Positions 3,415 through 58,548 are shown, numbered from the stretch's first letter. The stretch: DNA of 58,548 nt from a virus (IMGVR_UViG_3300031555_007106), one strand, 5' to 3'. Notes: generated by a model not told the origin, from the letters alone. A program made the numbers and translations.

Positions 3415-6400
3415 TTATTTCGTTTCAATCCATTCTGGCTTGGGATTTAGCCAATTTCCTGCATTAATGTAAAACGCTAAATGTAGTTGTATTTCAGCGT
3501 GTTTGTCGTAATAGATTTTCCCTTCTATAACCTTAAAAGTACATTGCACACGCCATTCTCTTGTACTGGTACAAAAATAAGGTTCGTAAATTAACGCTAT
3601 CTGTAAATCCTTACCAAGCTGTTTAGCTTTTGAAACTGCATCATCGAAATCCTCATACAAGTAATAATTAAACTCTCCGTTTACCATTACCATATAATTA
3701 AATAACGGCATCTCTTTTTTGCTGTTCATCGGGTATTTCATCACACATCACCTTGACCTTGATTTTTCCTCCATTATACTTACAACTAAACTCTTGTTCA
3801 TTTCTTTATTCCATTTTCCCTTTTTCTTTAACACCTCTTTAATAGGGTCATAGTCACTAATTCTTTGATAATCATGTAATATTTCCTCTTTTGATATACC
3901 GGTGATAACCGATAAATCTTTTGCCATATTGTCAATTACTTTATTTAATAATTCAAACATTTCATTTAAGGCAAGAGGATTCGTAAAAACTATACTATTC
4001 CCTATTTCTACAATGCTATTTTCGTGTAACATTCATATTCTCCTTTTCGCTTTTTGCTTTCTTTACGCATAAATAATGTCATTAAACAGGGCATATTGAA
4101 TAATAGCATCTGCTGCTTCACCGTCAATATTTCCGGTGTCAAATTCCCCTCTGTCAATCCATTTATATACGTCGTTTCCCGCGTATCTGTGTGTAGAAGC
4201 CAATGAAATTCCTCTCAAAAACTTTTCAAGAGTAAGTACGTGCCACTTTTCCTCTTCATTATCGTACAGTTTAAGCGTTCCGCCGCGAGATATCTGTTCG
4301 TTTATGTATTCTCCCAAATAATCTTCATTATCACCTAATGAAGCAGCGGTACACCAATATGTAATTCCACCTTCTAAAGCGGAACACATAATATCATCAA
4401 TGTTTTCTGATGTCAGTACAGCAGACAAATAACTATTAATACGATATGTATTTTGTGGAGTATTTGTATATTCGGTTAATCCAAAGGCTTTTGCAATATA
4501 CCAACTTCCGATAGGATTTGGATTTAGACTTTCTTCATACACACACTCACTGCAAATTTTGATATGTGCAACTCTGCTGAATCCCATAATCATATCGTCA
4601 GCAATTCTACCGCAACGAGGGCAAGGGAGCTTCGCTCCCGCCTCTTGTGCTACAAACCAGTTATAGATTAATCCTTTTATGTCCATATCTTCCCTTTTTC
4701 CTTTCTTAAACTAATCCGTACTTTTTACCGAAAGCGATAATTTCAATGATTGAATCTTCCGAAGGTTGCATATACAAATGCTGTTCGAGTGACCCCATGA
4801 TTCTTTCAAACTCATATCTTACGGTTTTATCTTCCGTATAAAAGTTATCATTACCAAGTAAGAAATCATCGATGAGCAAACACGCCCATATATACTGGAA
4901 TAACTGCTCGTCGTTTATTTTAACACGCTCATCCTCGTCTTCGTTGTTAAACCAGTACATATCCTCTTCAGTAATATACTTAATCTCAATGTCATTGAAA
5001 TCAAAATCTTCCTTCGTTGGAACAGAATCTTTGATATAATCTATATCCTGTCCAGTTCTTAAAGTTAATTCCTTCATTATTAAGTTCCTCCCCAAATCAT
5101 TTCCGTCGCAACTCTTTCAAGGTCAATACGGCCTGCCGGATTAGAACCTCTTTCACTTTCATCGTTTACGAATGTCCAAAATGAAACAAGATTGTCACTT
5201 ATAAACTTAAAGCGAATATCATCATTATTAAGTTTTCCGGAAGCAAGCTTTCTTCTGCATTCAGAAAGCCATTCGAGCCATCTTACAGGATAAATAGGAA
5301 CATCATCTGCATCCGTAAAAATTGAATACTTTTGAGCCTCTTCCACTAAATCGTAGAGAATGTCTTCGTCAGTTTCCGATGCGATATCATCAAGAATATG
5401 CTTAACACTCTTGTATATGATATCCTCATTTAGCACATTCTGATGGTTACAGTCCTTTTCGATGTCATAGAGTATGTATCCGCCATTCTTATGTCGCTTA
5501 AGTATCTTATTTGCAGAGTTAAGCACAAGCATAAAAGCTTTATGACACATTTCGCGACAAGTCAAATTGTATTCTTCCTCGGTAAGATAACTGTAAGATT
5601 TAAGAAAATCTTCCTTTGAAAGGATAGCGAAATCAAACATCTTTTCCTCATCATCACAGAAATGAGTTGGCTTTTTATTCTGTGTGGGAACCTGCATACC
5701 CATATTCTTAGCCATAAGACTCACAAACTTATCGTTGAAAAAGTCGCAGCTGTCATCGCAGTCAGAATTTACATACTCATCAGCCCATTCAGAGAAAATA
5801 TTGCTAAGTTCTTCTGAATCATAAGCCTGAAGCTCCTTATAAGTATCTTCTTCGTGCGACATCATAGCAATGCCGATATTTTCACCCCAAAGAATTGCGA
5901 ACTGTACTACCAAATCCATATTACTTCTACTCATAACAATTCCTCCTTAAATCGCAACAGCATTCATTAAGCTTTCATTTATGCTTCCATCAGGTTTAAT
6001 AAGACCTTTTTTGCTGTTTTCAATGAAAACTTTCGCTTCTTTCTCGTTTGCAAAATAATCATGATATACATCGCGGGTTTTTAAGCGTTCGAAAGTGTTT
6101 TCGGGTATTGTTTCCCTTTCAACAACGTTTAAAGCAAACGTACTCTTTCTACCATCAAAATACCGCGATACAACCTCATAAATACTCATAACTTAAGGTC
6201 CTCCTTATTATTTTTCCTTCATCGTTACATCACATTATTCCATCCGAAAACTTTCTAAGAAATCCCATTTTGCATCGATAAACATACACTTTACAGTGGA
6301 GTAGTCGGGTGTTTTCATGGAAACTTCGTTAAAAGCCTTCTCTAATTCCTCTATAATACCGATAGCAGTTGTCTGCGTAAACTTACATTCTCTCTTTGCC

Positions 6401-7719: not shown

Positions 7720-7860
7720 AAATAAAACTTCCTTTCATAATAAAAATAATAGCAATTCTTTAAAACTCCGGTCGTCATAAAATAATTGCTATTTATAGTA
7801 TGGTAAAAAAGCCGTAAAACAAAAAAAGCCCGCCAAAGCGAGCTTTCTCTGTTATTGCTA

Positions 7861-10800
7861 TTATTCGTAATTTTCTGCAAACTTGTTAAGATACTCGGCT
7901 GCTCTACGCAGTGCATAGCCCATATCTACAGGTTCTGTATTATAACAGATAGTAAATACAAAACCTACGGAATCATCAACTATATAGGCTTCAATACCTT
8001 TTTTTGCTCTCCAATGATTCATCCAATAACCATACTCGTAGCCATCGCCGGTAATTTCCTTTCTATAACGATTAGCGTCAACGATTGGTATAGGACAACG
8101 AATAAGGTCATCATCAGGTTTTTCGCAAGCCAACACGATTAACCCCTTACTTATTTCTCCTGTTTTCTTATATCGTTCATAAGCTGTTACAGTACTTGTT
8201 ACTTCAACATAATTTAAACACAATTCCTTTTCTGTTTCATTAAAATAGATAGGCTCATGTTTATCAGAACGGATTGTACCACAATAGCTTTCCCAATTAA
8301 GAATGTCATCAAGCATAGGGTTTTTCTTCATTACAGGCAAATCCTGATGTCCGTTTTCTCTTACTTCAATCCATGCGTTATATCCTGCATTTAAACAAGA
8401 TATAAGGCCTGCTAACGCCTTAGAAGGATTTGTTGTTGCGTGTGTCCAATTTGTCTTAAATTCCATATTCTATTCCTTTCTCACATAGCCTTTTGGCTGT
8501 ACTTTGATTTCGTAAAAAAGTCCATTATATAAACCGAACGCAAATCATTGTCTCTTCCGAATTGCATCGCTCCGTTCCCAACCCAGTTGGGAATCTTGAA
8601 CTTTTCACAATCTTCCATTAAGTCTTTTAATGTAATTTCAGCTGTTTGCACGATTTCTTCATCAGGAGAAGATTCTTTTCTCTCTTTAGTGAGTATGTAA
8701 GACCAAAATATAAGACCTTTTATTGCCTCTTCTATTTTGTAATCGAAATACTCATATTCAAGCTTTCCGCAATATAATTTCATATTTTCCCTTTCTAAGC
8801 CGGTATAAGCTTTCTTATCTGTTCTGCAATTTCCTTATAAATAATGCGAGGTTCATTAATTTCATCCTTAATATCGACAGAAGAAAAATGTTTGTTTATG
8901 GTATCGCATAATTTTGCAAAATATTCATCAAGATGTGGAGGAGTCCACGTATCACTCCTACAAAGAAAAATTGCATCAAATTTCTTTTTTGAAAGTCTTT
9001 TGACAGAGCTATATAATCTATTTTGCAAATCATATTCAGCAAATAAATCTTCAATTCCGTACATTTTCAATGAAATTGGGTTATGTACCCACGCAAAGTA
9101 AGTCATTAGTTTTAATGCATTGCGTTCTTCCATAATATAGCCAATCCAATTTCCGCAGTCTAAACCTTCATTTTCGTTTATCATGTCATGATGGAGGTCG
9201 ACATTATAAATATATAATTCTTCTCCTTTAGACAGATTTTCGTTAATAAAGTCGTAGATATTTACATGACTGTTAGCTATCATTACAGGAATATCGGATT
9301 TTTGTTTCGACAGTAGGCTTATAAGCGAATTGTATTCGTCATTTAAAAGACCGATTTTTTTCAATTCATCACCATCAGCAGCATAATGATTTCCCCATAT
9401 AATTTCAGAAAGGTATGTGGGATTGTCTACACCATCAGGACATAAACTAATCTGCTCTTTTGTGACATTCTGAAAATAATCAAAGTCGATACTTAAAATT
9501 TTCATATTACTTCACCGTCTTCCACTCCTTCTACATAGCCATATTCAAGTAAATCAAGCGCAAAATCAATACCCTCTTCATCAACATCACTCGTAAAAAG
9601 AGCCGCTTGTTCTTCTGCAGAAAGACCATCCTTTCCTCTTGAATAATTCATATTGTCGTTAAGAATTTCCGCTTTAATTACATAAAAAAGCGTTTCGAGT
9701 GACAATGTAGCGGTTATTAAGCTCATACTTGAAGAAGTTTTCCATTCATCGCAAGAAAACAAAACAAAGATTACCGGTTTTTCCATTTTACTTTCTCCTT
9801 TCACTGAGCCACTCCATCTCTAACAATTTCCACATAGCCGTTTTCAAGATTACAAAACACAAAATTTTCACCTTTGTTTGCGTAATCTTCGTTAAACATT
9901 TTCAACTGTTCTTTCTGGGTAGCTTCATCATTTCCCTTTTTGTAATACATAGAAGATTTTTCGATTTCTGCTTTGATTAAACTTTTCATTCTTCTTGGAG
10001 AAAAGGTTGCGCCAACAAGTCGCATACTCTCTGGACTTTTCCATTCATTACAGGAAAACAAAACATAAATATATTTTCTTTTATTCACTCTTTATTCTCC
10101 TTTCATCCAACCGTTTCATATTTGTCAGAAAATCGAAACCGATGATTTCTCCCATCTGTTCCACAACGGCAACATCAACCCGGAAAGAATTTGCAGCTTC
10201 GGTATCCTTAGCCCATTCAATAGCCTCCTCTAATGTTCCCGTGAAATCCTGAATCCAGTTACCGCTAACGCTGCCATCCTTTTCTTCAGAAACATTTATT
10301 AAGGAAAATTTCATATTACCCTTCCTTTCTTATAGCTTATTCCATTCATTTACAATTTCTGTTAACACTTCTTCGGGATAAAGGTTATCCGATGTACCAT
10401 ATCCACCTATATTTACATACTGGTCATTAACAAAAATGTTGTAAATGTAAACTTCCTTTCCTTCTTCGTTTTCTTCAAAACTGATACCTAAACTCTTTGT
10501 ATCTCTTGCACGGAATAAAATGTAGAATTCTGTAATTCCCTTATTCTTTTCAAGTTCTGCAAAGGAAACACAACGTTTAATTATCTGTTTTAAATCTTCC
10601 GCTGAAAGAGTTTCGTTAAGATAACGCATATTGCGATTTCCGTTATACGACCAGTCTTTAACATAAGACGGATTGGAAATTCTTTTTGCTTCTCTTACAG
10701 CGTCTTTACCTTCGTTAAAAACACTTTGAAAGAGAAGATTTGATTTTTCTTTTATTCGTCGCAATCTTGTGCTTGTGTAGACATCTACATTATCGAAGGT

Positions 10801-14949: not shown

Positions 14950-15024
14950 TGGAGCAAGCAACGGGAATTGAACCCGCATTTCCTGCTTGGGAAGCAGATG
15001 TATTGACCATTATACGATACTTGC
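14950..15024 (-). tRNA. tRNA-Gly(CCC)
   Basis: GCAAGTA acceptor, TCTGC-TTCCCAA-GCAGG anticodon arm, GGTTCAATTCC T-loop, encoded CCA; 75 nt. Confidence 0.92.
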
Positions 15025-15049
15025 ATACCTTGCTATATTGTAAATTCGG

Positions 15050-15281
15050 CTTTACTATAGTGTAAATTCATACACCCCTAAAACCCAATATATGAGAGTG
15101 TTACAGCACTCCCAGCTTTACTATAGTGTAAATTCATACACCCCTAAATCTAATACATATCTTCGAGAATATTGTTCATTACTTTAGAATAGTGCAAATT
15201 CATACACCCCTAAAGTCCTTCAAAAGAAGATGTTGATATAATCAAACTTTAGAATAGTGTAAATTCATACACCTCTAAAGC
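15050..15281 (-). CRISPR. Mini-array A: 4 repeats, 3 spacers (30/31/31 nt), plus a repeat remnant at ~15030-15047
   Basis: 35-nt repeat, sense GCTTTAGAGGTGTATGAATTTACACTAT(AG/TC)TAAAG, at 15050, 15116, 15182 and 15247. Confidence 0.93.
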
Positions 15282-15441
15282 CTCAAATTCAGTTTTACAG
15301 TGTATGTTACACGTATAATCTCGTACGGACTACTAAGTACGAGGTTTTCTGACCTATAAAGGCCAACCTTTGCAAGAGTGGAACTCCGGCGTTAATAAAC
15401 GTCTTACAGGTCCTTCTCGCTCTAAGGGTGCAAAGCCACCC
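15282..15441 (-). ncRNA. tracrRNA-like element A (Cas12f type), fused to array A
   Basis: ~160-nt sequence conserved in six copies. 5' hairpin GGGTG-GCTTTG-CACCC, anti-repeat near the 3' end, ends ATTTGAG at the first repeat. Confidence 0.82.
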
Positions 15442-15464
15442 CGACTACGACTTTATGCCGCTAT

Positions 15465-15540
15465 TGGTTGGGATAGTGGGATTTGAACCCACAAAATCCT
15501 TATCATAACAACAAAACAAAATTATTATAACAGTATCCCA
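15465..15540 (-). pseudogene. tRNA-like element: intact acceptor stem, T-arm and CCA, with D/anticodon arms replaced by one AT-rich hairpin
   Basis: TGGGATA...GTGGG-TTCAAAT-CCCAC-TATCCCA-A-CCA; 76 nt. Confidence 0.75.
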
Positions 15541-15591
15541 ATATAATTTTTTGTTTATCTGCTAATGTTTTTCATCTTCATACTATATATT

Positions 15592-15713
15592 CTTTTACCT
15601 ATTCAGTATCTATACGGTCTACTATGTATAGAGTTAACCTTTGCAAGAGGATTTTTCAGCGTTTAAATAACGTCTTACGAAAATTGCCTCGCTCTGAGGG
15701 TGCAAAGCCACCC
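15592..15713 (-). ncRNA. Divergent, shortened tracrRNA-like copy with no array
   Basis: Keeps GGGTGGCTTTGCACCC, GAGCGAG, GTAAGACGTT and CTCTTGCAAAGG. Compensatory stem CTATAC/GTATAG. Lacks the anti-repeat. Confidence 0.7.
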
Positions 15714-15771: not shown

Positions 15772-16002
15772 CTTTACTATAGTGTAAATCCATATACCTC
15801 TAAAGCCCCTGAGGATAAACAAATAAGGGACGCATTACTTTAGAATAGTGTAAATTCATACACTTCTAAAGCGAATCCCCGATTTTCCGCTTTGTTATCG
15901 CTCTTTAGAATAGTGTAAATTCATACACCTCTAAAGCTGATGGGTAGTCAGCAATCCAATTGCCATACTTTAGAATAGTGTAAATCCATACGCCTCTAAA
16001 GC
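15772..16002 (-). CRISPR. Mini-array B: 4 repeats, 3 spacers (30/30/31 nt)
   Basis: Repeats at 15772, 15838, 15903 and 15968. Confidence 0.93.
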
Positions 16003-16162
16003 CTCAAATTCAGTTTTACAGTGTATGTTACACGTATAATCTCGTACGGACTACTAAGTACGAGGTTTTCTGACCTATAAAGGCCAACCTTTGCAAGAGT
16101 GGAACTCCGGCGTTAGCAAACGTCTTACGGGTCCTTCTCGCTCTGAGGGTGCAAAGCCACCC
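16003..16162 (-). ncRNA. tracrRNA-like element B
   Basis: Near-identical to element A; abuts the first repeat via ATTTGAG. Confidence 0.82.
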
Positions 16163-16185
16163 CGACTACGGCTTTATGCCGCTAT

Positions 16186-16372
16186 TGGTTGGAACAGCAG
16201 GTAGTAACCCTATATGTTCCAATATAAGAGAATGCTAACCACTCAGGTGAAAAAAAGGTGTGTTATGATACCTTATCAAGACCTGCCAAAGACATTCTCA
16301 TGCGACACCCTATGTGCCGCTTCCAAGCATAAATAGGAGCGTTGGCTACCCAACAGCAAAGTTAAACTATGC
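16186..16372 (-). ncRNA. Unrecognised structured RNA ending in a CCA-tipped minihelix (copy 1 of 3)
   Basis: Homologous to 53891-54066 and 57957-58155, with compensatory stem changes. Confidence 0.65.
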
Positions 16373-18044: not shown

Positions 18045-18078
18045 ATTTTTCTCCTTTTTCATTATAATATTTTTCACA

Positions 18079-18223
18079 TAGGTAAATTCATACACCCCTA
18101 AAGCATATTTACGGTATAGAATGCTCGGACTGATGCTTTACTATAATGTAAATTCATACACCTCTAAAACACTATATATAGAGAGGAGTTTTACTATAGT
18201 GTAAATTTATACACCTCTAAAGC
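18079..18223 (-). CRISPR. Mini-array C: 2 full repeats and 1 partial, spacers 18 and 31 nt
   Basis: Repeats at 18189 and 18136, partial at 18079-18104 running into the DUF4317 upstream region. Confidence 0.88.
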
Positions 18224-18382
18224 CTCAAATTCAGTTTTACAGTGTATATTACACATATAGTCTCGTACGGACTACTAAGTACGAGGTTTTCTGACCGTTA
18301 TGGTCAACCTTTGCAAGAGTGGAACTCCAGCGTTAGCAAACGTCTTACGGGTCCTTCTCGCTCTGAGGGTGCAAAGCCACCC
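18224..18382 (-). ncRNA. tracrRNA-like element C
   Basis: Conserved element with variant hairpin TGACC-ATAAC-GGTCA. Confidence 0.82.
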
Positions 18383-20545: not shown

Positions 20546-21898
20546 TTAATCTTCGTTGTTTCCACTTGATTTCAAAAGTTCGTCAATATCCTTAATAAGA
20601 AGAGCCGGAAGAACATCCTTATCCGCATCAAAAACATGACCGCAAGAAGAACATTCATATGTCACAACATCTTCTTCTGTATGTCTTTCACAAGTTGCCG
20701 TCATACACTGAGAGCACCATTTTCTCAGGCCTTTGTATCCAACTTTAATGACCTTGATTCCGTGTTCCTTTGCCTTATATTCGATTTTCTGAGTTAAGTC
20801 AAAGTAAGACCAATCCTTTAAGTAAACATTCTTCTGAAGTTCAGATGACGCAAGTCCGGTTAAATCCTCAAGCTGAATAGTTCCGCAATTATTCTTGATA
20901 GCCCATTCAATGATAGCTCTTGAGTATCTGTGATTGACCGTATTTCTAAAATTCGTAACAGCTTCACTTATATGATTGCGAGCTGACATCTTTCTCTTGA
21001 ACCCTCTTCCAAGTCTTCCGTCCCCGCATAAGGGTGAATCCTTGTAAGCAGCTTGTCCTATGTTAGCACGTCTGGTCTCAATTCTATCACTGAATCTCTT
21101 GATTTCCTTCCCTTCAATTGTCATTACACGAGAAGAATTGCTGAATGCAGCCATAACAGCATTGTGTTCACCGATATGTACGCCCATAATATTTTCTGCA
21201 TCAAGCTCTGTATTAACATCCTTAGTGAATGTATAAGAAAGAAGAAGATACCACTTGCCATCTTCATATACAAGCTTACTTCCGGAAATCTTGTATTCTT
21301 TATCATAACATCTTTCAAGAATTGTCCATACCGAGTTTTTCGCCTTTGCCGGAGCGACCATTATAAACTTAAGACGGGTATCCTTGAGATTATACTTCTG
21401 CATTCCCTTTCTGGATAACAAAGAAAGAGTAACATACCAATCCTTGATACCACCGTTCGGCTCTTTATCAAAACTAATGGCAATGGATTTATTGTGAAGT
21501 TCCATAGGCATTCCTCTTCTGTAGGAAGGAATCGACATATCTCCTCTCAACATATCCTTTTCTCTTTTCTTGAATGTGTTCATTACATTCTGGATTACTG
21601 AACCGAGATTTCGTGTACTCTGAAGGCAGAATTCACCGCTCATTTCCCTATAAAGCAAGCTCTGAAGATTTGTACTGCTTCCGGTCATTTCTTTGATTTC
21701 ATCCTTTGTTTTAGGGTAATCGCCGTGTGTTTCCTTCCACTTAGCCTTAGCTCCATCATACTCCCAGATTAACTGAACTGCACGATTAGCGGCGTTTCGG
21801 GTTTCGTTCTGCAAATCCCATAACATTCGATTCAATTCCTTGAATTCGATGATGTCATCATTCACAGAGATTAACTTCAATTTTACTACTTTTGTCAT
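20546..21898 (-). CDS. cas12f: Cas12f/TnpB-family RNA-guided protein, predicted nuclease-dead (450 aa)
   Basis: Resembles AsCas12f1 as I recall it along its length (LRGDMSIPSYRR, YVTLSLLS, NFRNTVNHRYSR, CGTIQLEDL, DLTQKIEYKAKEHGIKV, CxxC..CxxC). RuvC-I reads MGVHIG instead of GxDxG. Start at 21898 behind AGGAGG. Confidence 0.88.
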   Translation of the reverse strand: MTKVVKLKLISVNDDIIEFKELNRMLWDLQNETRNAANRAVQLIWEYDGAKAKWKETHGDYPKTKDEIKEMTGSSTNLQSLLYREMSGEFCLQSTRNLGSVIQNVMNTFKKREKDMLRGDMSIPSYRRGMPMELHNKSIAISFDKEPNGGIKDWYVTLSLLSRKGMQKYNLKDTRLKFIMVAPAKAKNSVWTILERCYDKEYKISGSKLVYEDGKWYLLLSYTFTKDVNTELDAENIMGVHIGEHNAVMAAFSNSSRVMTIEGKEIKRFSDRIETRRANIGQAAYKDSPLCGDGRLGRGFKRKMSARNHISEAVTNFRNTVNHRYSRAIIEWAIKNNCGTIQLEDLTGLASSELQKNVYLKDWSYFDLTQKIEYKAKEHGIKVIKVGYKGLRKWCSQCMTATCERHTEEDVVTYECSSCGHVFDADKDVLPALLIKDIDELLKSSGNNED

Positions 21899-26517: not shown

Positions 26518-29162
26518 TTATTCAATCTTCTCTATTTCCCTGTAGTTATCTTCGGTTAATAATCCGCAAAAAGCTATGTAACCTTGTTTATTATAAATTT
26601 TACATAAGTTACATTTATACTCTTCGCAAAACTTTTTGTATACCTTAAGAAGTTCCTTTTTGGTGTCACATATTACTCCGAAAGCAACAGCATAAGCAGA
26701 TTGCATTGGTTCATAACATTCAATCCTGTATTTTCCTGTGGTTATGCAAACCTTATATCGTTCATCACATTCGAGACAAATGGCATACATACCGTTTTTG
26801 TCTATTCTATAACCTTTATCAAGGTTCACATATCCGCATGAAGTACACTTCAATCATATCACATCCTTTTCTTTTTTAGTCAAGAGGATTGCCAAATGTT
26901 TTGATGTAAAGGTTTCTGTAAATTTCCAGACATGTAGATTTAAAAAGCCAATTTTCCACTCTAAATTCCGGATATTTCTTTAATGCTTCCGTGCAGATTT
27001 CTCTATTTTTAGGAGTGTCAATATAACAGCCTTTTTCAAGACCATCTATGTCATTAATAAATTTTACTCCATCCTTTTCTGCTTGCCTACAAGCTCCAAA
27101 ATCATCTTTAAAGCCGTAGTCGTGTTCGTTAACCAATTCATCTATACACTCGACTATTTCGGCACCCTCTATGATTATATCGCTGTTATATACAGCGCAT
27201 ACAACGTAACCATTAACAACTTCTTCTTTTGTGTAGTTTCCTTTCTTCATGAGCTTCGTAATTTCTTCTTCATTCATCGGTTTTTCTATATTTTGAGTCT
27301 TTTCATCATTTTGTATAAATTTTGCTGTATGTTCATTTATAGCCTTCTGAATTTCTTCAAATCCAGTCTGTGTTAAATGAGGTATTTCCTTTATTTCAGA
27401 ATAAGTCATTCTGCAAAGGTCACGAAGAGTATTGATACCGGCTCTCTTTAAGCAATTAAAGGTCTTAACCTTAAGGTTGAGAGAATCAATTTCAATAGAT
27501 TTAAGGTAATCATCGAAATCCACATCAGAAATAATCTGAAAAGCGGGCTGATGTTCGATAATATCACAACAGGCCTTTAACACACCCATTCGAACCTCGT
27601 CATCTTTATAAAGTCTGCTCTGCTCTCTCAATTCATCAATGAGCATACCCTTTTCGATAAAATAAGCGGTATCATCCCAAGGCCCGTCTTCACTTTCAAT
27701 GAATTCTGTACACTCATCTTGAACATTTTGATTTACCATAAGACGCTTTATTCGCTCGACCTCATCGTGGCGATTCATCTTTTTGTTAATTTCCATCATC
27801 TGTTTACACAACTGATAGTATTCGCAATATTTACAAGTCATTTTATTCTCCTTTCACCCTTCAAATAAAATCTCAAAAGGATGACGTCCCTTATTTTTTT
27901 CCTTATAAAGATAGGCTCTTATCTTTTCAAGCTGCTTTTGAGCTTCAATACGCTTTTTATCTTCGCCTACCATTCGAGCGTCGAAATAAAGAACATCGTA
28001 ATTGCCGTTTAAAAGAGAGTCTACAATAGTGCGAAAGAAAAAACTGTCAATTTCAGCTTTTCTGAAAACTTCTTTAATATCTCCATATACCCCTACAGCA
28101 TATATTGGTTCTGTGCCGTCAAGAGAGGTTTTGAAGACTTCCGGAGTCTTTTCGTATATACGTATCATTCTTTTCGTTCTGTCAAGCATAATATTCTCCT
28201 TTATTCCTGTTTTATTGCATCGAATGAATGTTCTAAAAGTGTTTCTACAGCAGACTTACTATATCCGGTAAGAGATTTTAAATAATCTTCTAATCCATCA
28301 TAAACTGCGAGTTCGCTTTCGCAGCCAAGGCAGCGCTGAATAGCCTTAATTGCAATTTTCTTCAGCATATCATTCTGCACATACAATTTTTCAATAGAAT
28401 AAATTGGTTTTTCAGGCTTTTCTTTGTTTTCAAACACCGCGATATCGTATTCCTTTTTGCTGAGATACAATGGAAGCTGAGTTTCAGCGTGAACGAGACA
28501 ATACATTTCAGTATCTTTACATCCTTCAAAATAAAACTTTTCTTCCTTCAGAATGAAAATATCGCCATCACAATATAGCAAGCTTCCGTCTTCGTCACGA
28601 CGAAGGTCATAGTATTCACGTTCTCCGTCTTCGTTATAATAGTCGATATAACCGCCATAATGAAGATTTGTTATACCTGCATCATATAATGCTTTAAAGC
28701 TTACTCCAACCTTTCTGTTTTCCATACCATTTTCCTCACTTTCTCTTAACTTTATTGATTCTGATGTCCGTTGGAACAGTTTTGATATGCTTAAACTGTC
28801 TTTTACTTTCGGTTGTGTACGAATTGCTTTTACGTGCAATTGCTGTTGTACAATAACTACATCTCATCATAATTTTATTTTCCTTTCTTAAAGTTTTCGG
28901 CCGAAATCTCACTCAATCGTATAATAGCCGTTTCAATTTCTTCTGTTGTAGGATTAATCCAGCTATCTACGATTTCGTCGGGGGATTCGAGAGATAAAAA
29001 CATTTTACCGTTTTCATTGGTAACAAAAAGAAAACACGCCTTATCTGCATCATCACACACAGTTTTTGCGACAACATCCATTGTTTCAGCAAGACGTTCC
29101 TTTTCTTTTTCGAAATAATCTCTTAACTTTTCTGGTTCAATACAAATCTTAATACCTTTCAT
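26518..29162 (-). CDS. Module of 5 ORFs (26518-26853, 26876-27841, 27854-28189, 28201-~28727, 28875-29162)
   Basis: Packed ORFs with RBSs. Confidence 0.75.
26876..27841 (-). CDS. Mosaic protein containing an RNA polymerase alpha C-terminal-domain-like module
   Basis: IDSLNLKVKTFNCLKRAGINTLRDLCRMTYSEIKEIPHL matches the alpha-CTD pattern (L.lsvRs.NCLKraGI.tv.dL). Confidence 0.75.
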   Translation of the reverse strand: MTCKYCEYYQLCKQMMEINKKMNRHDEVERIKRLMVNQNVQDECTEFIESEDGPWDDTAYFIEKGMLIDELREQSRLYKDDEVRMGVLKACCDIIEHQPAFQIISDVDFDDYLKSIEIDSLNLKVKTFNCLKRAGINTLRDLCRMTYSEIKEIPHLTQTGFEEIQKAINEHTAKFIQNDEKTQNIEKPMNEEEITKLMKKGNYTKEEVVNGYVVCAVYNSDIIIEGAEIVECIDELVNEHDYGFKDDFGACRQAEKDGVKFINDIDGLEKGCYIDTPKNREICTEALKKYPEFRVENWLFKSTCLEIYRNLYIKTFGNPLD

Positions 29163-42410: not shown

Positions 42411-42602
42411 TTTGAAAATAAAGTCAATATTAAAACTCCATAACGTCAGTAAAATATTGCTACTAATAGTATGGTAAAAAAGCTGTAAAACAAAAAAGCC
42501 CGCCGAAGCGAGCTTTTCTTTCTTATATTGGCTTTATCTTTCATTGTTTTAATTCTTGCTTTTTTGATATGCGTTTATATTCCCTGCAAATCTCTTTTGA
42601 TG

Positions 42603-53173: not shown

Positions 53174-53345
53174 TTTTACTCTTTTAACAACATACGGACG
53201 GGAAACCTCGGTTATTTATAGTTGAGAAGTTCACACATAGCACATATCACATTTCAAAATTTAACATTTTATTCTATCATACTACAATTAAGAGGTGATA
53301 TAATTTTTGTCGAATTCCTCAAAAGGCATTTAATCATCTTGAAAC

Positions 53346-53506
53346 GGGTGGCTTTGCACCCTCAGAGCGAGAAGGACCTGTAAGACGTTTGCTAACGCTG
53401 GAGCTCCACTCTTGCAAAGGTTGACTTTTTGTAAGTCAGAAAACCTCGTACTTAGTAGTCCGTACGAGACTATATGTGTAATATACACTGTAAAACTGAA
53501 TTTGAG
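53346..53506 (+). ncRNA. tracrRNA-like element D
   Basis: Conserved element; a CATACTA promoter core lies at 53278-53284. Confidence 0.82.
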
Positions 53507-53718
53507 GCTTTAGAGGTGTATGAATTTACACTATAGTAAAGTATTGCCATGGTCTATGGGAAAGTAATAACGGCTTTAGAGGTGTATGAATTTACACTAT
53601 AGTAAAGTGGCCAGACCGTTGGATTCGCTGCTTTAGAGGTGTATGAATTTACATTATAGTAAAGATACGAATTCGTACATATAGCTTTAGAGGTGTATGG
53701 ATTTACACCATAGTAAAG
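53507..53718 (+). CRISPR. Mini-array D: 4 repeats, spacers 31/22/19 nt
   Basis: Repeats at 53507, 53573, 53630 and 53684. Confidence 0.93.
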
Positions 53719-53890: not shown

Positions 53891-54066
53891 GCATAGTTTA
53901 AATCTTGCGTTGGGTCAAGCCAACACTCCTATTTATGCTTGGAAGTGATACATAGGGTATCGCACGAGAATGTCTTTGGCAGAATTTTTACCTCCTTTAG
54001 CGATTCTGAGTGGTTAGCATTCTCTTATACTGGAACATATAGGGTCACTACCTGTTGTTTCATCCA
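53891..54066 (+). ncRNA. Unrecognised structured RNA ending in a CCA-tipped minihelix (copy 2)
   Basis: Homologous to 16186-16372, with covarying stems. Confidence 0.65.
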
Positions 54067-54089
54067 ATAGCGGTATAAAGCCGTAATCG

Positions 54090-54250
54090 GGGTGGCTTTG
54101 CACCCTCAGAGCGAGAAGGACCTGTAAGACGTTTGCTAACGCCGGAGTTCCACTCTTGCAAAGGTTGACTTTTTGTAAGTCAGAAAACCTCGTACTTAGT
54201 AGTCCGTACGAGACTATATGTGTAACACACACTAAAAACTGCATTTTGAG
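54090..54250 (+). ncRNA. tracrRNA-like element E
   Basis: Conserved element; ends TTTTGAG. Confidence 0.82.
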
Positions 54251-54546
54251 GCTTTAGGGGTGTATGAATTTACACTATAGCAAAGCGATTCGTCCTTTCT
54301 TTGTAAGGCGGGTAAGCTTAGGGGTGTATGAATTTACACTATAGTAAAGCGCTCCGCACTTTCCGCAGACGAGCAAGCCTGCTTTAGAGGTGTATGAATT
54401 TACACTATAGTAAAGCTTCAGGACAAAAGAGCCCTTCAGGCCTCGTGCTTTAGAGGTGTATGAATTTACACTATAGCAAAGCACACATATTGATAATCTG
54501 CAATAAATGCAGCTTTAGGGGTGTATGAATTTACACTATAGTAAAG
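54251..54546 (+). CRISPR. Mini-array E: 5 repeats, spacers 30/31/31/30 nt
   Basis: Repeats at 54251, 54316, 54381, 54447 and 54512. Confidence 0.95.
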
Positions 54547-54606
54547 TAGCATGCATAAATCCACTATAATAAAGGAGCAAATTCTTTATTGTAATCTGCA
54601 AGACAC

Positions 54607-55150
54607 GAGAATAAACAGGGTAATTACCTGTTATTCTCACCAACAACAAATCAAAACAGAATAAAGCTGATGGAGTATCCCTGAGCAATCTTTATAGATT
54701 GAACGCAACAGCTTCAAATAAAATGCGTTGGTGAGGCGTGACCGTAGCGAAGCAGGGCTGAACATGGACCCCGAGGTTATTGCGCCGCAGCATGCGATAT
54801 CCCCGGTCAGGAGGACGTACCTTGCCTCCTTAAACATTGGGTAGGGCTGGAACGCTGGGGGCAAAACCCGGGATGCTTGCATGGAAGACAGGACAGCGTT
54901 TGTCGCAATATCAAGAGATATTGGTCATGCAGGTTGCTGCGGCGATTTAAATTTTCATCAAATTTTCATAAATTTTTTCTTTCTTATCTCAAATCTGGAC
55001 TTGGGGCTGGGGGTAGTATACCCTTTTTCAGTGCCAAGTCCGGGTGAGGGATAACTCTCGCGTTGCGGTCGACTTATCATGACCAGTTGACGCCGTTGGC
55101 TTCCGCGTTGCGCTGACCATTCAGGCTCTAGAGGTGGCAATGCCTGCTCC
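54607..55150. other. GC-rich non-coding region with extensive nested complementarity (candidate large ncRNA)
   Basis: Stems 54607-54638, 54783-91/54936-44, 54809-14/54825-30, 54851-57/54894-900, 54906-23 and 54997-55004/55034-41; no credible ORF. Confidence 0.45.
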
Positions 55151-55546
55151 GTTTAGCTTAAAAGTTGAGTGCAAAGCACCAAAATCACCTCCTGAAAGCC
55201 AAAAATCACCTTCAAAACCTTAAAGAAAACCAAAAATCGGTCGTACAAAAATCAAGTAGGTCGGAAAACGGCAGTCCCGAAAATCGACCTCAACGGTGGA
55301 CGGGTCTTCCTCAGTAACGGTGGATGAGCTTTCCGCAAGTCCCTGACGGGTCCTCGACTGATATTCACAAGGTCGCTGAAGCGATAGCTCGTATATAAGG
55401 ACTCTCTTAAGAAAGAAAAAGAAAAGAGAGTAAGAGAGAAATCAAAAAGGGATAGGTATGTCAACTTATACTTTATAATAATAGAGATAAAGAATATAAG
55501 AGATAAGAGAGAGTAGGATAATAGAGAGAAAGAAAGGAAGGTAGTC

Positions 55547-57956: not shown

Positions 57957-58155
57957 TGCATAGCTGTGTTTTGGTTTCAGATGTTTTTTCTTTTCATCTG
58001 ATACATCCCATATGCTTGGAAGTGGCACATAGGGTGTCGCATGAGAATGTCTTTGGCAGGTCTTGATAAGGTATCATAACACACCTTTTTCCGCCTGAGT
58101 GGTTAGCATTCTTTTATACTGGAACATATAGGGTCACTACCTGTTATTTCAACCA
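57957..58155 (+). ncRNA. Unrecognised structured RNA ending in a CCA-tipped minihelix (copy 3)
   Basis: Homologous to the other two copies; a CATACTATAT promoter core lies at 57903. Confidence 0.62.
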
Positions 58156-58178
58156 ATAGCGGCATAAAGCCGTAGTCG

Positions 58179-58339
58179 GGGTGGCTTTGCACCCTCAGAG
58201 CGAGAAGGACCTGTAAGACGTTTGCTAACGCCGGAGTTCCACTCTTGCAAAGGTTGGCTTTTTGTAAGTCAGAAAACCTCGTACTTAGTAGTCCGTACGA
58301 GACTATATGTGTAACATACACTGTAAAACTGAATTTGAG
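58179..58339 (+). ncRNA. tracrRNA-like element F
   Basis: Conserved element ending ATTTGAG. Confidence 0.82.
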
Positions 58340-58548
58340 GCTTTAGAGGTGTATGAATTTACACTATAGTAAAGCTCGGTAGGCACAGTGCTAACTGCGC
58401 CCAAGGCTTTAGGGGTGTATGAATTTACACTATGGTAAAGCTATCAGCAGTTTGTATACACTTTAGAGATGTATGGATTTACACTATAGTAAAGCCTCTT
58501 ATATTTTTTCAAGACAAAATGAAGCTTTAGAGGTGTATGAATTTACAC
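58340..58548 (+). CRISPR. Mini-array F, truncated by the window end: at least 4 repeats, spacers 31/19/29 nt
   Basis: Repeats at 58340, 58406, 58460 and 58524 (partial). Confidence 0.92.

Follow-up and report, generated by a model that had tools for sequence, protein, structure and literature searches.

In the type V-F1 system of AsCas12f1, the genome encodes one tracrRNA and one long CRISPR array, with about 134 nt, including a hairpin, between the anti-repeat and the first repeat; a single guide for this effector exists in engineered form (sgRNA_V1). Another Cas12f lineage, found in Bacteroidota, has C-terminally truncated proteins with a damaged RuvC site that are linked to rpoE and HTH genes. 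It lacks adaptation genes, has mostly lost its arrays, and has a tracrRNA joined with a (half) repeat into a guide unit that is duplicated as a whole so as to reach several sites (dCas12f-sigmaE; PMC12259090, PMC10691335). The scenario published for this sigma-linked lineage starts with the inactivation of Cas12f and proceeds through the minimisation of the array and the fusion of half a repeat to the tracrRNA to the duplication of the unit (Altae-Tran et al. 2023, PMC10691335). Single chimeric guides have been shown in it (Hoffmann et al. 2025, PMC12259090). The omegaRNA of TnpB, whose protein family is related to that of Cas12f, is a single transcript in which a structured scaffold is followed by a 3' guide. 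This scaffold overlaps the 3' end of tnpB and the right end of the transposon, and the DNA next to it sets the guide. Finally, a long form of the Cas9 tracrRNA, tracr-L, contains a built-in partial guide (Workman et al. 2021, as cited in PMC12259090).

We compared these systems with a locus in a stretch of viral DNA of 58,548 nt (IMGVR_UViG_3300031555_007106), hereafter the window; all coordinates refer to this whole stretch. The window resembles the AsCas12f1 system in its homologous protein and in its RNA: a stem-1 loop that can pair with the repeat end (R:AR-2 in AsCas12f1), a GAGAAG core in stem 2, stems 3 and 4, and a long R:AR-1. It differs from it by an extra distal segment in stem 2, by a His at the position of D225, and by its organisation, with six units of 3 to 5 repeats each instead of one long array, and 10 nt instead of about 134 nt before the first repeat. 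In connectivity, the natural fused unit equals sgRNA_V1. With dCas12f-sigmaE it shares the damaged RuvC site, the absence of adaptation genes, the tracrRNA joined to a repeat, and the duplicated guide units. However, it lies in Clostridia-type mobile elements, encodes a full-length protein in which the Asp has become His, has no sigma factor that we could find nearby, and keeps its mini-arrays of 3-5 repeats. The array-less single chimeric guide of that lineage has no counterpart in the window (a relative, L004, has a half-repeat fusion), and our model of the window RNA found no match in the Flavobacterial loci. The TnpB omegaRNA has a similar topology, but the window units lack transposon ends, do not overlap the 3' end of the nuclease gene, contain a full repeat and anti-repeat in the scaffold, continue into further repeat-spacer units, and are free-standing, up to 37 kb from cas12f. 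Cas9 tracr-L, as described in the citing article, is also a natural guide that needs no separate crRNA and that binds rather than cuts, but it belongs to another effector family and is not fused to an array. A literature search of incomplete coverage found no natural tracr-repeat fusion described in type V-F1 proper. We consider it probable that, in the window, a tracrRNA and its mini-arrays have multiplied on a large mobile element into six self-contained guide units for a binding-only Cas12f, and that this layout is derived.

The RNA element is 151 nt long. A search with a covariance model (cmsearch) found six full copies in the window, 96% identical to one another and scoring 173-188 bits, and one degenerate copy. 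A first-pass annotation of the sequence had counted seven repeated copies: six of them stand at full length, and the seventh, copy E, is the degenerate one. Copies A (53346..53496; 178.6 bits), B (54090..54240; 173.2 bits) and C (58179..58329; 183.3 bits) are on the plus strand, and copies D (15291..15441; 185.4 bits), F (16012..16162; 188.2 bits) and G (18233..18382; 176.8 bits) on the minus strand. Copy A folds into stems 1 to 4 and a 28-nt anti-repeat; with its first repeat, it makes up the region that had been annotated (53346-53541). In the alignment, copy E (15587..15713, minus strand; 68.5 bits) retains stems 1, 2 and 4, without stem 3, anti-repeat or array. Copy G shares its strand with cas12f and lies about 2.1 kb downstream of it; the other copies are 2.4 to 37 kb from this gene.

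Each full copy precedes one array, in which a 35-nt repeat occurs 3 to 5 times. Array A (53507..53718, plus strand) has four repeats, the first at 53507-53541, and spacers of 31, 22 and 19 nt; array B (54251..54546, plus strand) has five repeats; and array C (58340..58548, plus strand) has at least four and continues past the end of the window. On the minus strand, arrays D (15050..15281) and F (15772..16002) have four repeats each, and array G (18071..18223) has two full repeats and a truncated one. The 17 different spacers are 18 to 31 nt long, most of them 29-31 nt, and the distal repeats are more degenerate. Each of the six copies also has its own promoter context. Tracr A is preceded, at a distance of about 58 nt, by a promoter-like TTAACA-16-TACAAT, a match to the consensus only, which overlaps a TCATACTA box (53261..53288, plus strand). 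Upstream of tracr B lies a conserved stretch of about 160 nt that is predicted to be a structured leader (53934..54089, plus strand), and the same leader precedes tracr C (58011-58178, plus strand) and tracr F (16163-16331, minus strand). Before tracr D it is reduced to its last ~35 nt, a small hairpin, and a similar small hairpin, TTCGCC..GGCGAA, lies immediately 5' of the tracr in the related loci L001, L002 and L033. Rfam contains no family matching the 151-nt element or its leader, at either gathering or permissive thresholds, and exact scans with the tracr 5' region found no match in IMG/VR or in the JGI metagenomes.

To identify the element, we built the covariance model from the six full window copies and nothing else. 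The AsCas12f1 guide scaffold (taken from 10.1101/2022.10.20.513037) was located in Sulfoacidibacillus thermotolerans Y002 (L015), a locus fetched by a protein-based scan. The window-only model matches L015:4120-4255, i.e., the position of the published AsCas12f1 tracrRNA, from its first to its last position, with 32.9 bits and an E-value of 1.2e-5 for all 41 sources or 1.6e-7 for this locus by itself. In about 20 more loci from Clostridia and Bacilli, it also matches next to cas12f. The 151-nt element is a homologue of the type V-F1 (AsCas12f1-type) tracrRNA. The annotation had proposed a Cas12f tracrRNA architecture, and the same stems, anti-repeat and loop-to-repeat pseudoknot are indeed found in the AsCas12f1 type. 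Its coding strand is also fixed, because the opposite strand scores only 18.8 bits and several pairs are G-U on the strand of the element.

The stems are conserved through changes on both sides of the pairs. In an alignment of 31 sequences, 94% of the cells are paired; shifting the 3' partners by 1 to 3 columns lowers this share to 35-47%. Both sides have changed in 43 of the 46 pairs, a value matched by none of 500 shuffles; these counts are somewhat inflated because the alignment was fitted to the structure of the model, but the margin is still large. Covariation had initially been described between the copies of the window. The variants that were quoted are present, but the signal within the window is thin (among the six full copies, one pair in stem 3 is altered on both sides, with a few G-U switches, and the stem-4 variant comes from copy E) and the convincing part comes from other genomes. 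Two motifs had been likened to the AsCas12f1 tracrRNA. The first, CGAGAAG, does match the GAGAAG of the stem-2 triplex core: both GAGAAG and CACUC, the facing C-N-CUC strand of this putative base-triple core, are present and align to As G27-G32 and C63-C67. The second, TAAGACGTTTGCTAACGC, was rejected as a sign of homology, since the model places it at a different part of the As RNA; its likeness is probably coincidental.

The pairing proposed between the loop of the 5' hairpin and the 3' end of the repeat is strengthened by the comparison of loci. Stem 1 (GGGTG/CACCC with the loop GCTTTG; 53346-53361) presents a CUUU that pairs with AAAG at the end of the 35-nt repeat, in a helix brought to 5 bp by an additional G-U pair. 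Loop and repeat end co-vary over 18 loci: in 16 of them at least four contiguous Watson-Crick pairs can form, with seven different pair sets (CUUU/AAAG, CUUA/UAAG, CUUG/CAAG, CUCG/CGAG, GUUCA/UGAAC, UUCA/UGAA and UUUC/GAAA), and none of 5000 permutations of the loops against the repeat ends reaches 16. The cryo-EM structure of AsCas12f1 contains a short second repeat:anti-repeat duplex (R:AR-2) stacked on stem 1 (10.1101/2023.07.03.547593), the helix to which this pairing corresponds.

The anti-repeat, which had been described as complementary to most of the repeat, spans 28 nt (53469-53496) and pairs with repeat positions 2-31. In copy A, the resulting R:AR-1 duplex has about -20 kcal/mol and leaves exactly the final AAAG unpaired. 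In all six units it comprises about 24-26 bp, with -14 to -23 kcal/mol. Some units may nevertheless be decaying, because the pairing is weaker in module B and a 2x2 mismatch interrupts it between the anti-repeats of modules D and F and their own first repeats. The mismatch results from a repeat type in which TTC replaces TAG near the 3' end and which occupies the tracr-proximal positions of the two arrays (15968-16002, 15903-15937, 15838-15872, 15247-15281 and 15182-15216, all on the minus strand); their distal repeats are of the standard type.

The distance between anti-repeat and repeat 1, previously put at about 10 nt, is exactly 10 nt in copy A. This linker (TGAATTTGAG, 53497..53506, plus strand) ends in ATTTGAG and serves as loop for the fused repeat:anti-repeat hairpin. 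Five units have it in identical form, and unit B has a variant that is one base longer. In the predicted fold of 53346-53541, a single long hairpin comes after the four stems, and the guide takes the 3' end. This supports the view that tracr, linker, repeat 1 and spacer 1 together reproduce the engineered AsCas12f1 single guide in their topology. The annotation had seen here a ready-made sgRNA for spacer 1 and, at the same time, an intermediate on the way from the omegaRNA: the predicted fold agrees with the former, and the latter is judged improbable for the reasons given below. A consensus scan found no terminator-like site between tracr and array. Two small shares of metatranscriptome runs were also searched: one gave a single gut contig of 233 nt, which matches copy C over 58179-58375 and runs from the tracr start through the full tracr, the linker and repeat 1 into 10 nt of a different spacer; the other gave none. 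This contig is only a hint of a continuous transcript, because it derives from a related copy or strain, the depth is low and DNA carry-over is possible. We infer that the transcript stays in one piece as the mature guide.

The single cas gene of the window (20546..21898, minus strand) encodes a Cas12f homologue of 450 aa, counted from the second Met, which phmmer relates to the AsCas12f1 structures (E 7e-77; best entries 8J12, 8DZJ and 7WJU, E ~1e-76). The protein is full length, without the C-terminal truncation that removes RuvC-III in the sigma-linked lineage, and retains the zinc-finger cysteines. Aligned with AsCas12f1, it has His241 in the column of D225, the catalytic Asp of RuvC-I, E344 in that of E324 and D426 in that of D401. 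The intact catalytic set (As D225, E324, D401 and R383) is not preserved, although the Glu and the third Asp are. We extended the comparison to 46 protein clusters with 42-99% identity to the window protein (near set) and to 71 more distant clusters. In the near set, the D225 column is His in 45 of 46 clusters, the Ser/Thr of As S369 is lost in all 46, R383 is kept in 4 and E324 in all 46, and the full-length reading frame is kept throughout, down to 42% identity. The distant clusters have D (58/71) or N (13/71) in the first column, S or T in all 71 and R in 62. In AsCas12f1, D225A, E324A, R383A and D401A each abolish cleavage, and the D225A variant still forms a complex with guide and target DNA. 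Judging from these residues, the effector is probably nuclease-dead, its clade having His for the catalytic Asp and lacking two more residues required for cleavage, and most likely binds DNA without cutting it; the His at the RuvC-I position may in principle still support some catalysis. The RuvC-I Asp is also absent elsewhere in the family (T or F in L014, L019 and L021, and N in the 13 distant clusters, within P0049-P0120), and Cas12f inactivation in gut Clostridia seems to have occurred more than once.

The neighbourhood of the gene was also inspected. Between cas12f and copy G lie six small ORFs, none of them of a known family, and no sigma-factor domain was found in the cas12f neighbours that were scanned. 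A protein of 321 aa with an RNA polymerase alpha C-terminal domain is encoded 5 kb upstream of cas12f (26876-27841, minus strand) and may matter if transcription is what the system acts on.

These elements can be assembled into a model of how the units might work. Each unit would be transcribed from the element's own promoter box, and the transcript would fold into stems 1 to 4, with the anti-repeat folding onto repeat 1 over the 10-nt loop. The CUUU of the stem-1 loop would then pair with the last AAAG of repeat 1 and leave spacer 1 as the 3' guide. The downstream repeat-spacer units would be served in trans by a tracrRNA that any of the six copies could supply, and Cas12f would bind DNA without cutting and silence its targets. 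The silencing step is a guess because no spacer target was found: the first 20 nt of all 17 spacers have no match inside the window with up to 4 mismatches, the spacers of arrays A and B have none in a phage collection, and two spacers have no exact match in IMG/VR. Likewise, the assemblies that hold L001 and L003 contain no self-targets, the only matches being the repeated promoter cassettes of the elements.

Other features of the arrays may affect transcription and processing. Every canonical repeat (e.g., 53509-53537) contains a promoter-like TTTAGA-17-TATAGT, a 9/12 match to the consensus only; if it were active, transcripts would begin at each spacer. Unit D lies between two tRNA genes (14950-15540, minus strand), with a tRNA-Asn 23 nt upstream of its tracr (15465..15540; ARAGORN) and a tRNA-Gly 25 nt past the final repeat of its array (14950..15024; ARAGORN and Rfam). 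In L081, the closest relative, both units also lie between tRNA genes (828-919, 4109-4183 and 4822-4898). By analogy with engineered tRNA-guide polycistrons, RNase P and RNase Z could trim the ends of such units.

The most serious alternative is that this is an ordinary dual-RNA system: the tracrRNA gene would sit in the leader position of the CRISPR array, RNase III would cut the duplex into separate tracrRNA and crRNA, and the conserved 10-nt linker would be a leader-end motif for spacer integration instead of a guide loop. We find this account less likely than that of multiplied guide units, but it carries real weight and the two are compatible. It draws on the distribution of the layout. 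The gap between tracr and first repeat is at most 22 nt, mostly below 15, in the window and in L001-L004, L033, L081 and L082, and it is also at most 22 nt in the nuclease-intact L006, L007, L016, L018, L034 and L036, which have arrays of 5 to 13 or more repeats. In L009, L022, L011, L017 and the As genome it amounts to 51-142 nt, with a hairpin in between. Abutment of tracr and array is not peculiar to the window: nuclease-intact Clostridial Cas12f loci share it, and those with their own conserved junction, TTTTGCA (L006, L007, L016, L018 and L034), speak for the dual-RNA account. The linker was conserved while anti-repeat and repeat diverged (TGAATTTGAG in the window, GAATTTGAG in L081, TTTTGAG in L082 and L033). 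At the junctions of copies A-G, with counterparts in L081, L082 and L033, ATTTGAG precedes G(C/T)TTTAGAG, as at the leader end and repeat start of type II-A arrays. The leader of such arrays has a conserved end, ATTTGAG before a G, and its final 10 nt suffice for acquisition together with the first repeat (PMC5382924). By this analogy, besides serving as a hairpin loop, the linker may signal the end of a leader whose place the tracrRNA gene has taken. Spacers mostly of 29-31 nt and the greater degeneracy of the distal repeats also agree with the dual-RNA account.

Other observations argue against the dual-RNA account. No Cas1 domain was found in window ORFs of at least 250 aa, and neither cas1 nor cas2 in the window or around cas12f in its relatives. 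In the assemblies of L001, L003 and L004, Cas1 occurs only beside repeats ending in GGATTGAAAT, which we take to be type I-C, and Csn2 had no match in the assemblies of five relatives, the control genomes being likewise without match; a type II-A donor for the ATTTGAG junction is thus unsupported. In L004, the first repeat is reduced to its last ~14 nt, which form a 7-bp hairpin with the anti-repeat, followed by UAAG and the guide: this hairpin is too short for RNase III, so the unit is usable only as a fused single guide. In contrast, the 26-bp duplex of the window is long enough for RNase III, whose cut may leave a dual RNA as the mature form here.

A more elaborate version goes further. A large phage or plasmid of gut Clostridia would carry a binding-only Cas12f with several cassettes in which the leader equals the tracrRNA, borrow acquisition from the host, have transcripts trimmed at tRNAs, and silence genes. 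We hold this to be doubtful as a whole. If it were true, a spacer inserted at the ATTTGAG junction, which the tracrRNA abuts, would immediately become the 3' guide of a ready-made single guide, so that the newest spacer would always be served in cis. The acquisition machine would come from the host, the flanking tRNA genes would direct the trimming of the transcript, and genes of competitors or of the host would be silenced.

The phylogeny of the effector bears on the direction of change. The clade with the His is monophyletic (100/100), has a long branch, and is sister (89/83) to the nuclease-intact Clostridial clade with the abutting layout. All sampled His-clade loci with sequence beyond both sides of cas12f contain multiple tracr and mini-array units (three in L001, five in L003, two in L004, two in L081 and three in L082), and in the contig of L033 a second copy lies 39 kb from the first; within the clade, the units are multiplied 2 to 6 times. 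The surroundings, long runs of small unknown genes together with ERF, PIF1 and SNase genes, look like phage or plasmid DNA. The clade is set apart by its His-type Cas12f, its multiplied tracr-array units and the absence of cas1, the abutting layout itself being shared.

This position in the tree weakens the idea that the fused unit is an ancestral intermediate between the TnpB omegaRNA and a split tracrRNA and crRNA, which we now regard as improbable. The scaffold topology with its 3' guide is indeed omegaRNA-like, and transposon-CRISPR intermediates with split RNAs exist, according to the article that cites them (Jin et al. 2025, cited in PMC13565253). However, the clade is a long-branched sister of nuclease-intact, CRISPR-associated Cas12f of type V-F1 with long arrays, its catalytic residues are degraded, there are neither transposon ends nor tnpA, and the scenario published for a comparable lineage runs in the opposite direction (PMC10691335). 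A full repeat with a full-length anti-repeat is also retained, which implies that the CRISPR repeat pre-existed. A secondary re-fusion is likelier because of the tree position, the degraded active site and this retained pair: the lineage probably went from a dual RNA to a re-fused guide, its layout being derived and not inherited from an omegaRNA. The window clade is apparently a second, independent run of the dead-Cas12f path, at an earlier stage than the sigma-linked lineage. It provides a natural counterpart to the engineered Cas12f single guide, and since its mini-arrays are still real, the proposed path from CRISPR effector to RNA-guided regulator becomes testable on living intermediates. 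The co-variation between loop and repeat and the compact scaffolds, such as the 7-bp hairpin of L004, also provide design information for miniature Cas12f guides.

That the locus is a decaying CRISPR-Cas12f system, with a dead nuclease, broken short arrays of irregular spacers and functionless duplicated remnants, would fit the shortest spacers, of 18-22 nt, the truncated repeat in G, the degenerate copy E, the weaker pairing in B, D and F, and the lack of spacer targets in the searches described above, but it is very unlikely given that the His (45/46) and the full-length frame are kept across the near set, that the RNA stems are maintained through compensatory changes inside the His clade, that the loop-to-repeat pairing co-varies, and that the six near-identical copies each have their own promoter context.

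Two further features of the window concern its non-coding DNA. Between array B and a gene for a YfhO-like protein (54600-55540), about 900 nt contain no ORF of more than 101 aa and no Rfam match, with a G+C content of 0.40-0.49 compared with ~0.33 in the surroundings. In addition, a cassette that joins a terminator to a promoter, measures 100-140 nt and contains a TCATACTAT box occurs in 13 copies between 637 and 50113 (e.g., 7744-7863 and 42415-42533). These cassettes split the one-strand gene array, and the TCATACTAT box is also present upstream of guide units A, B, C and F.
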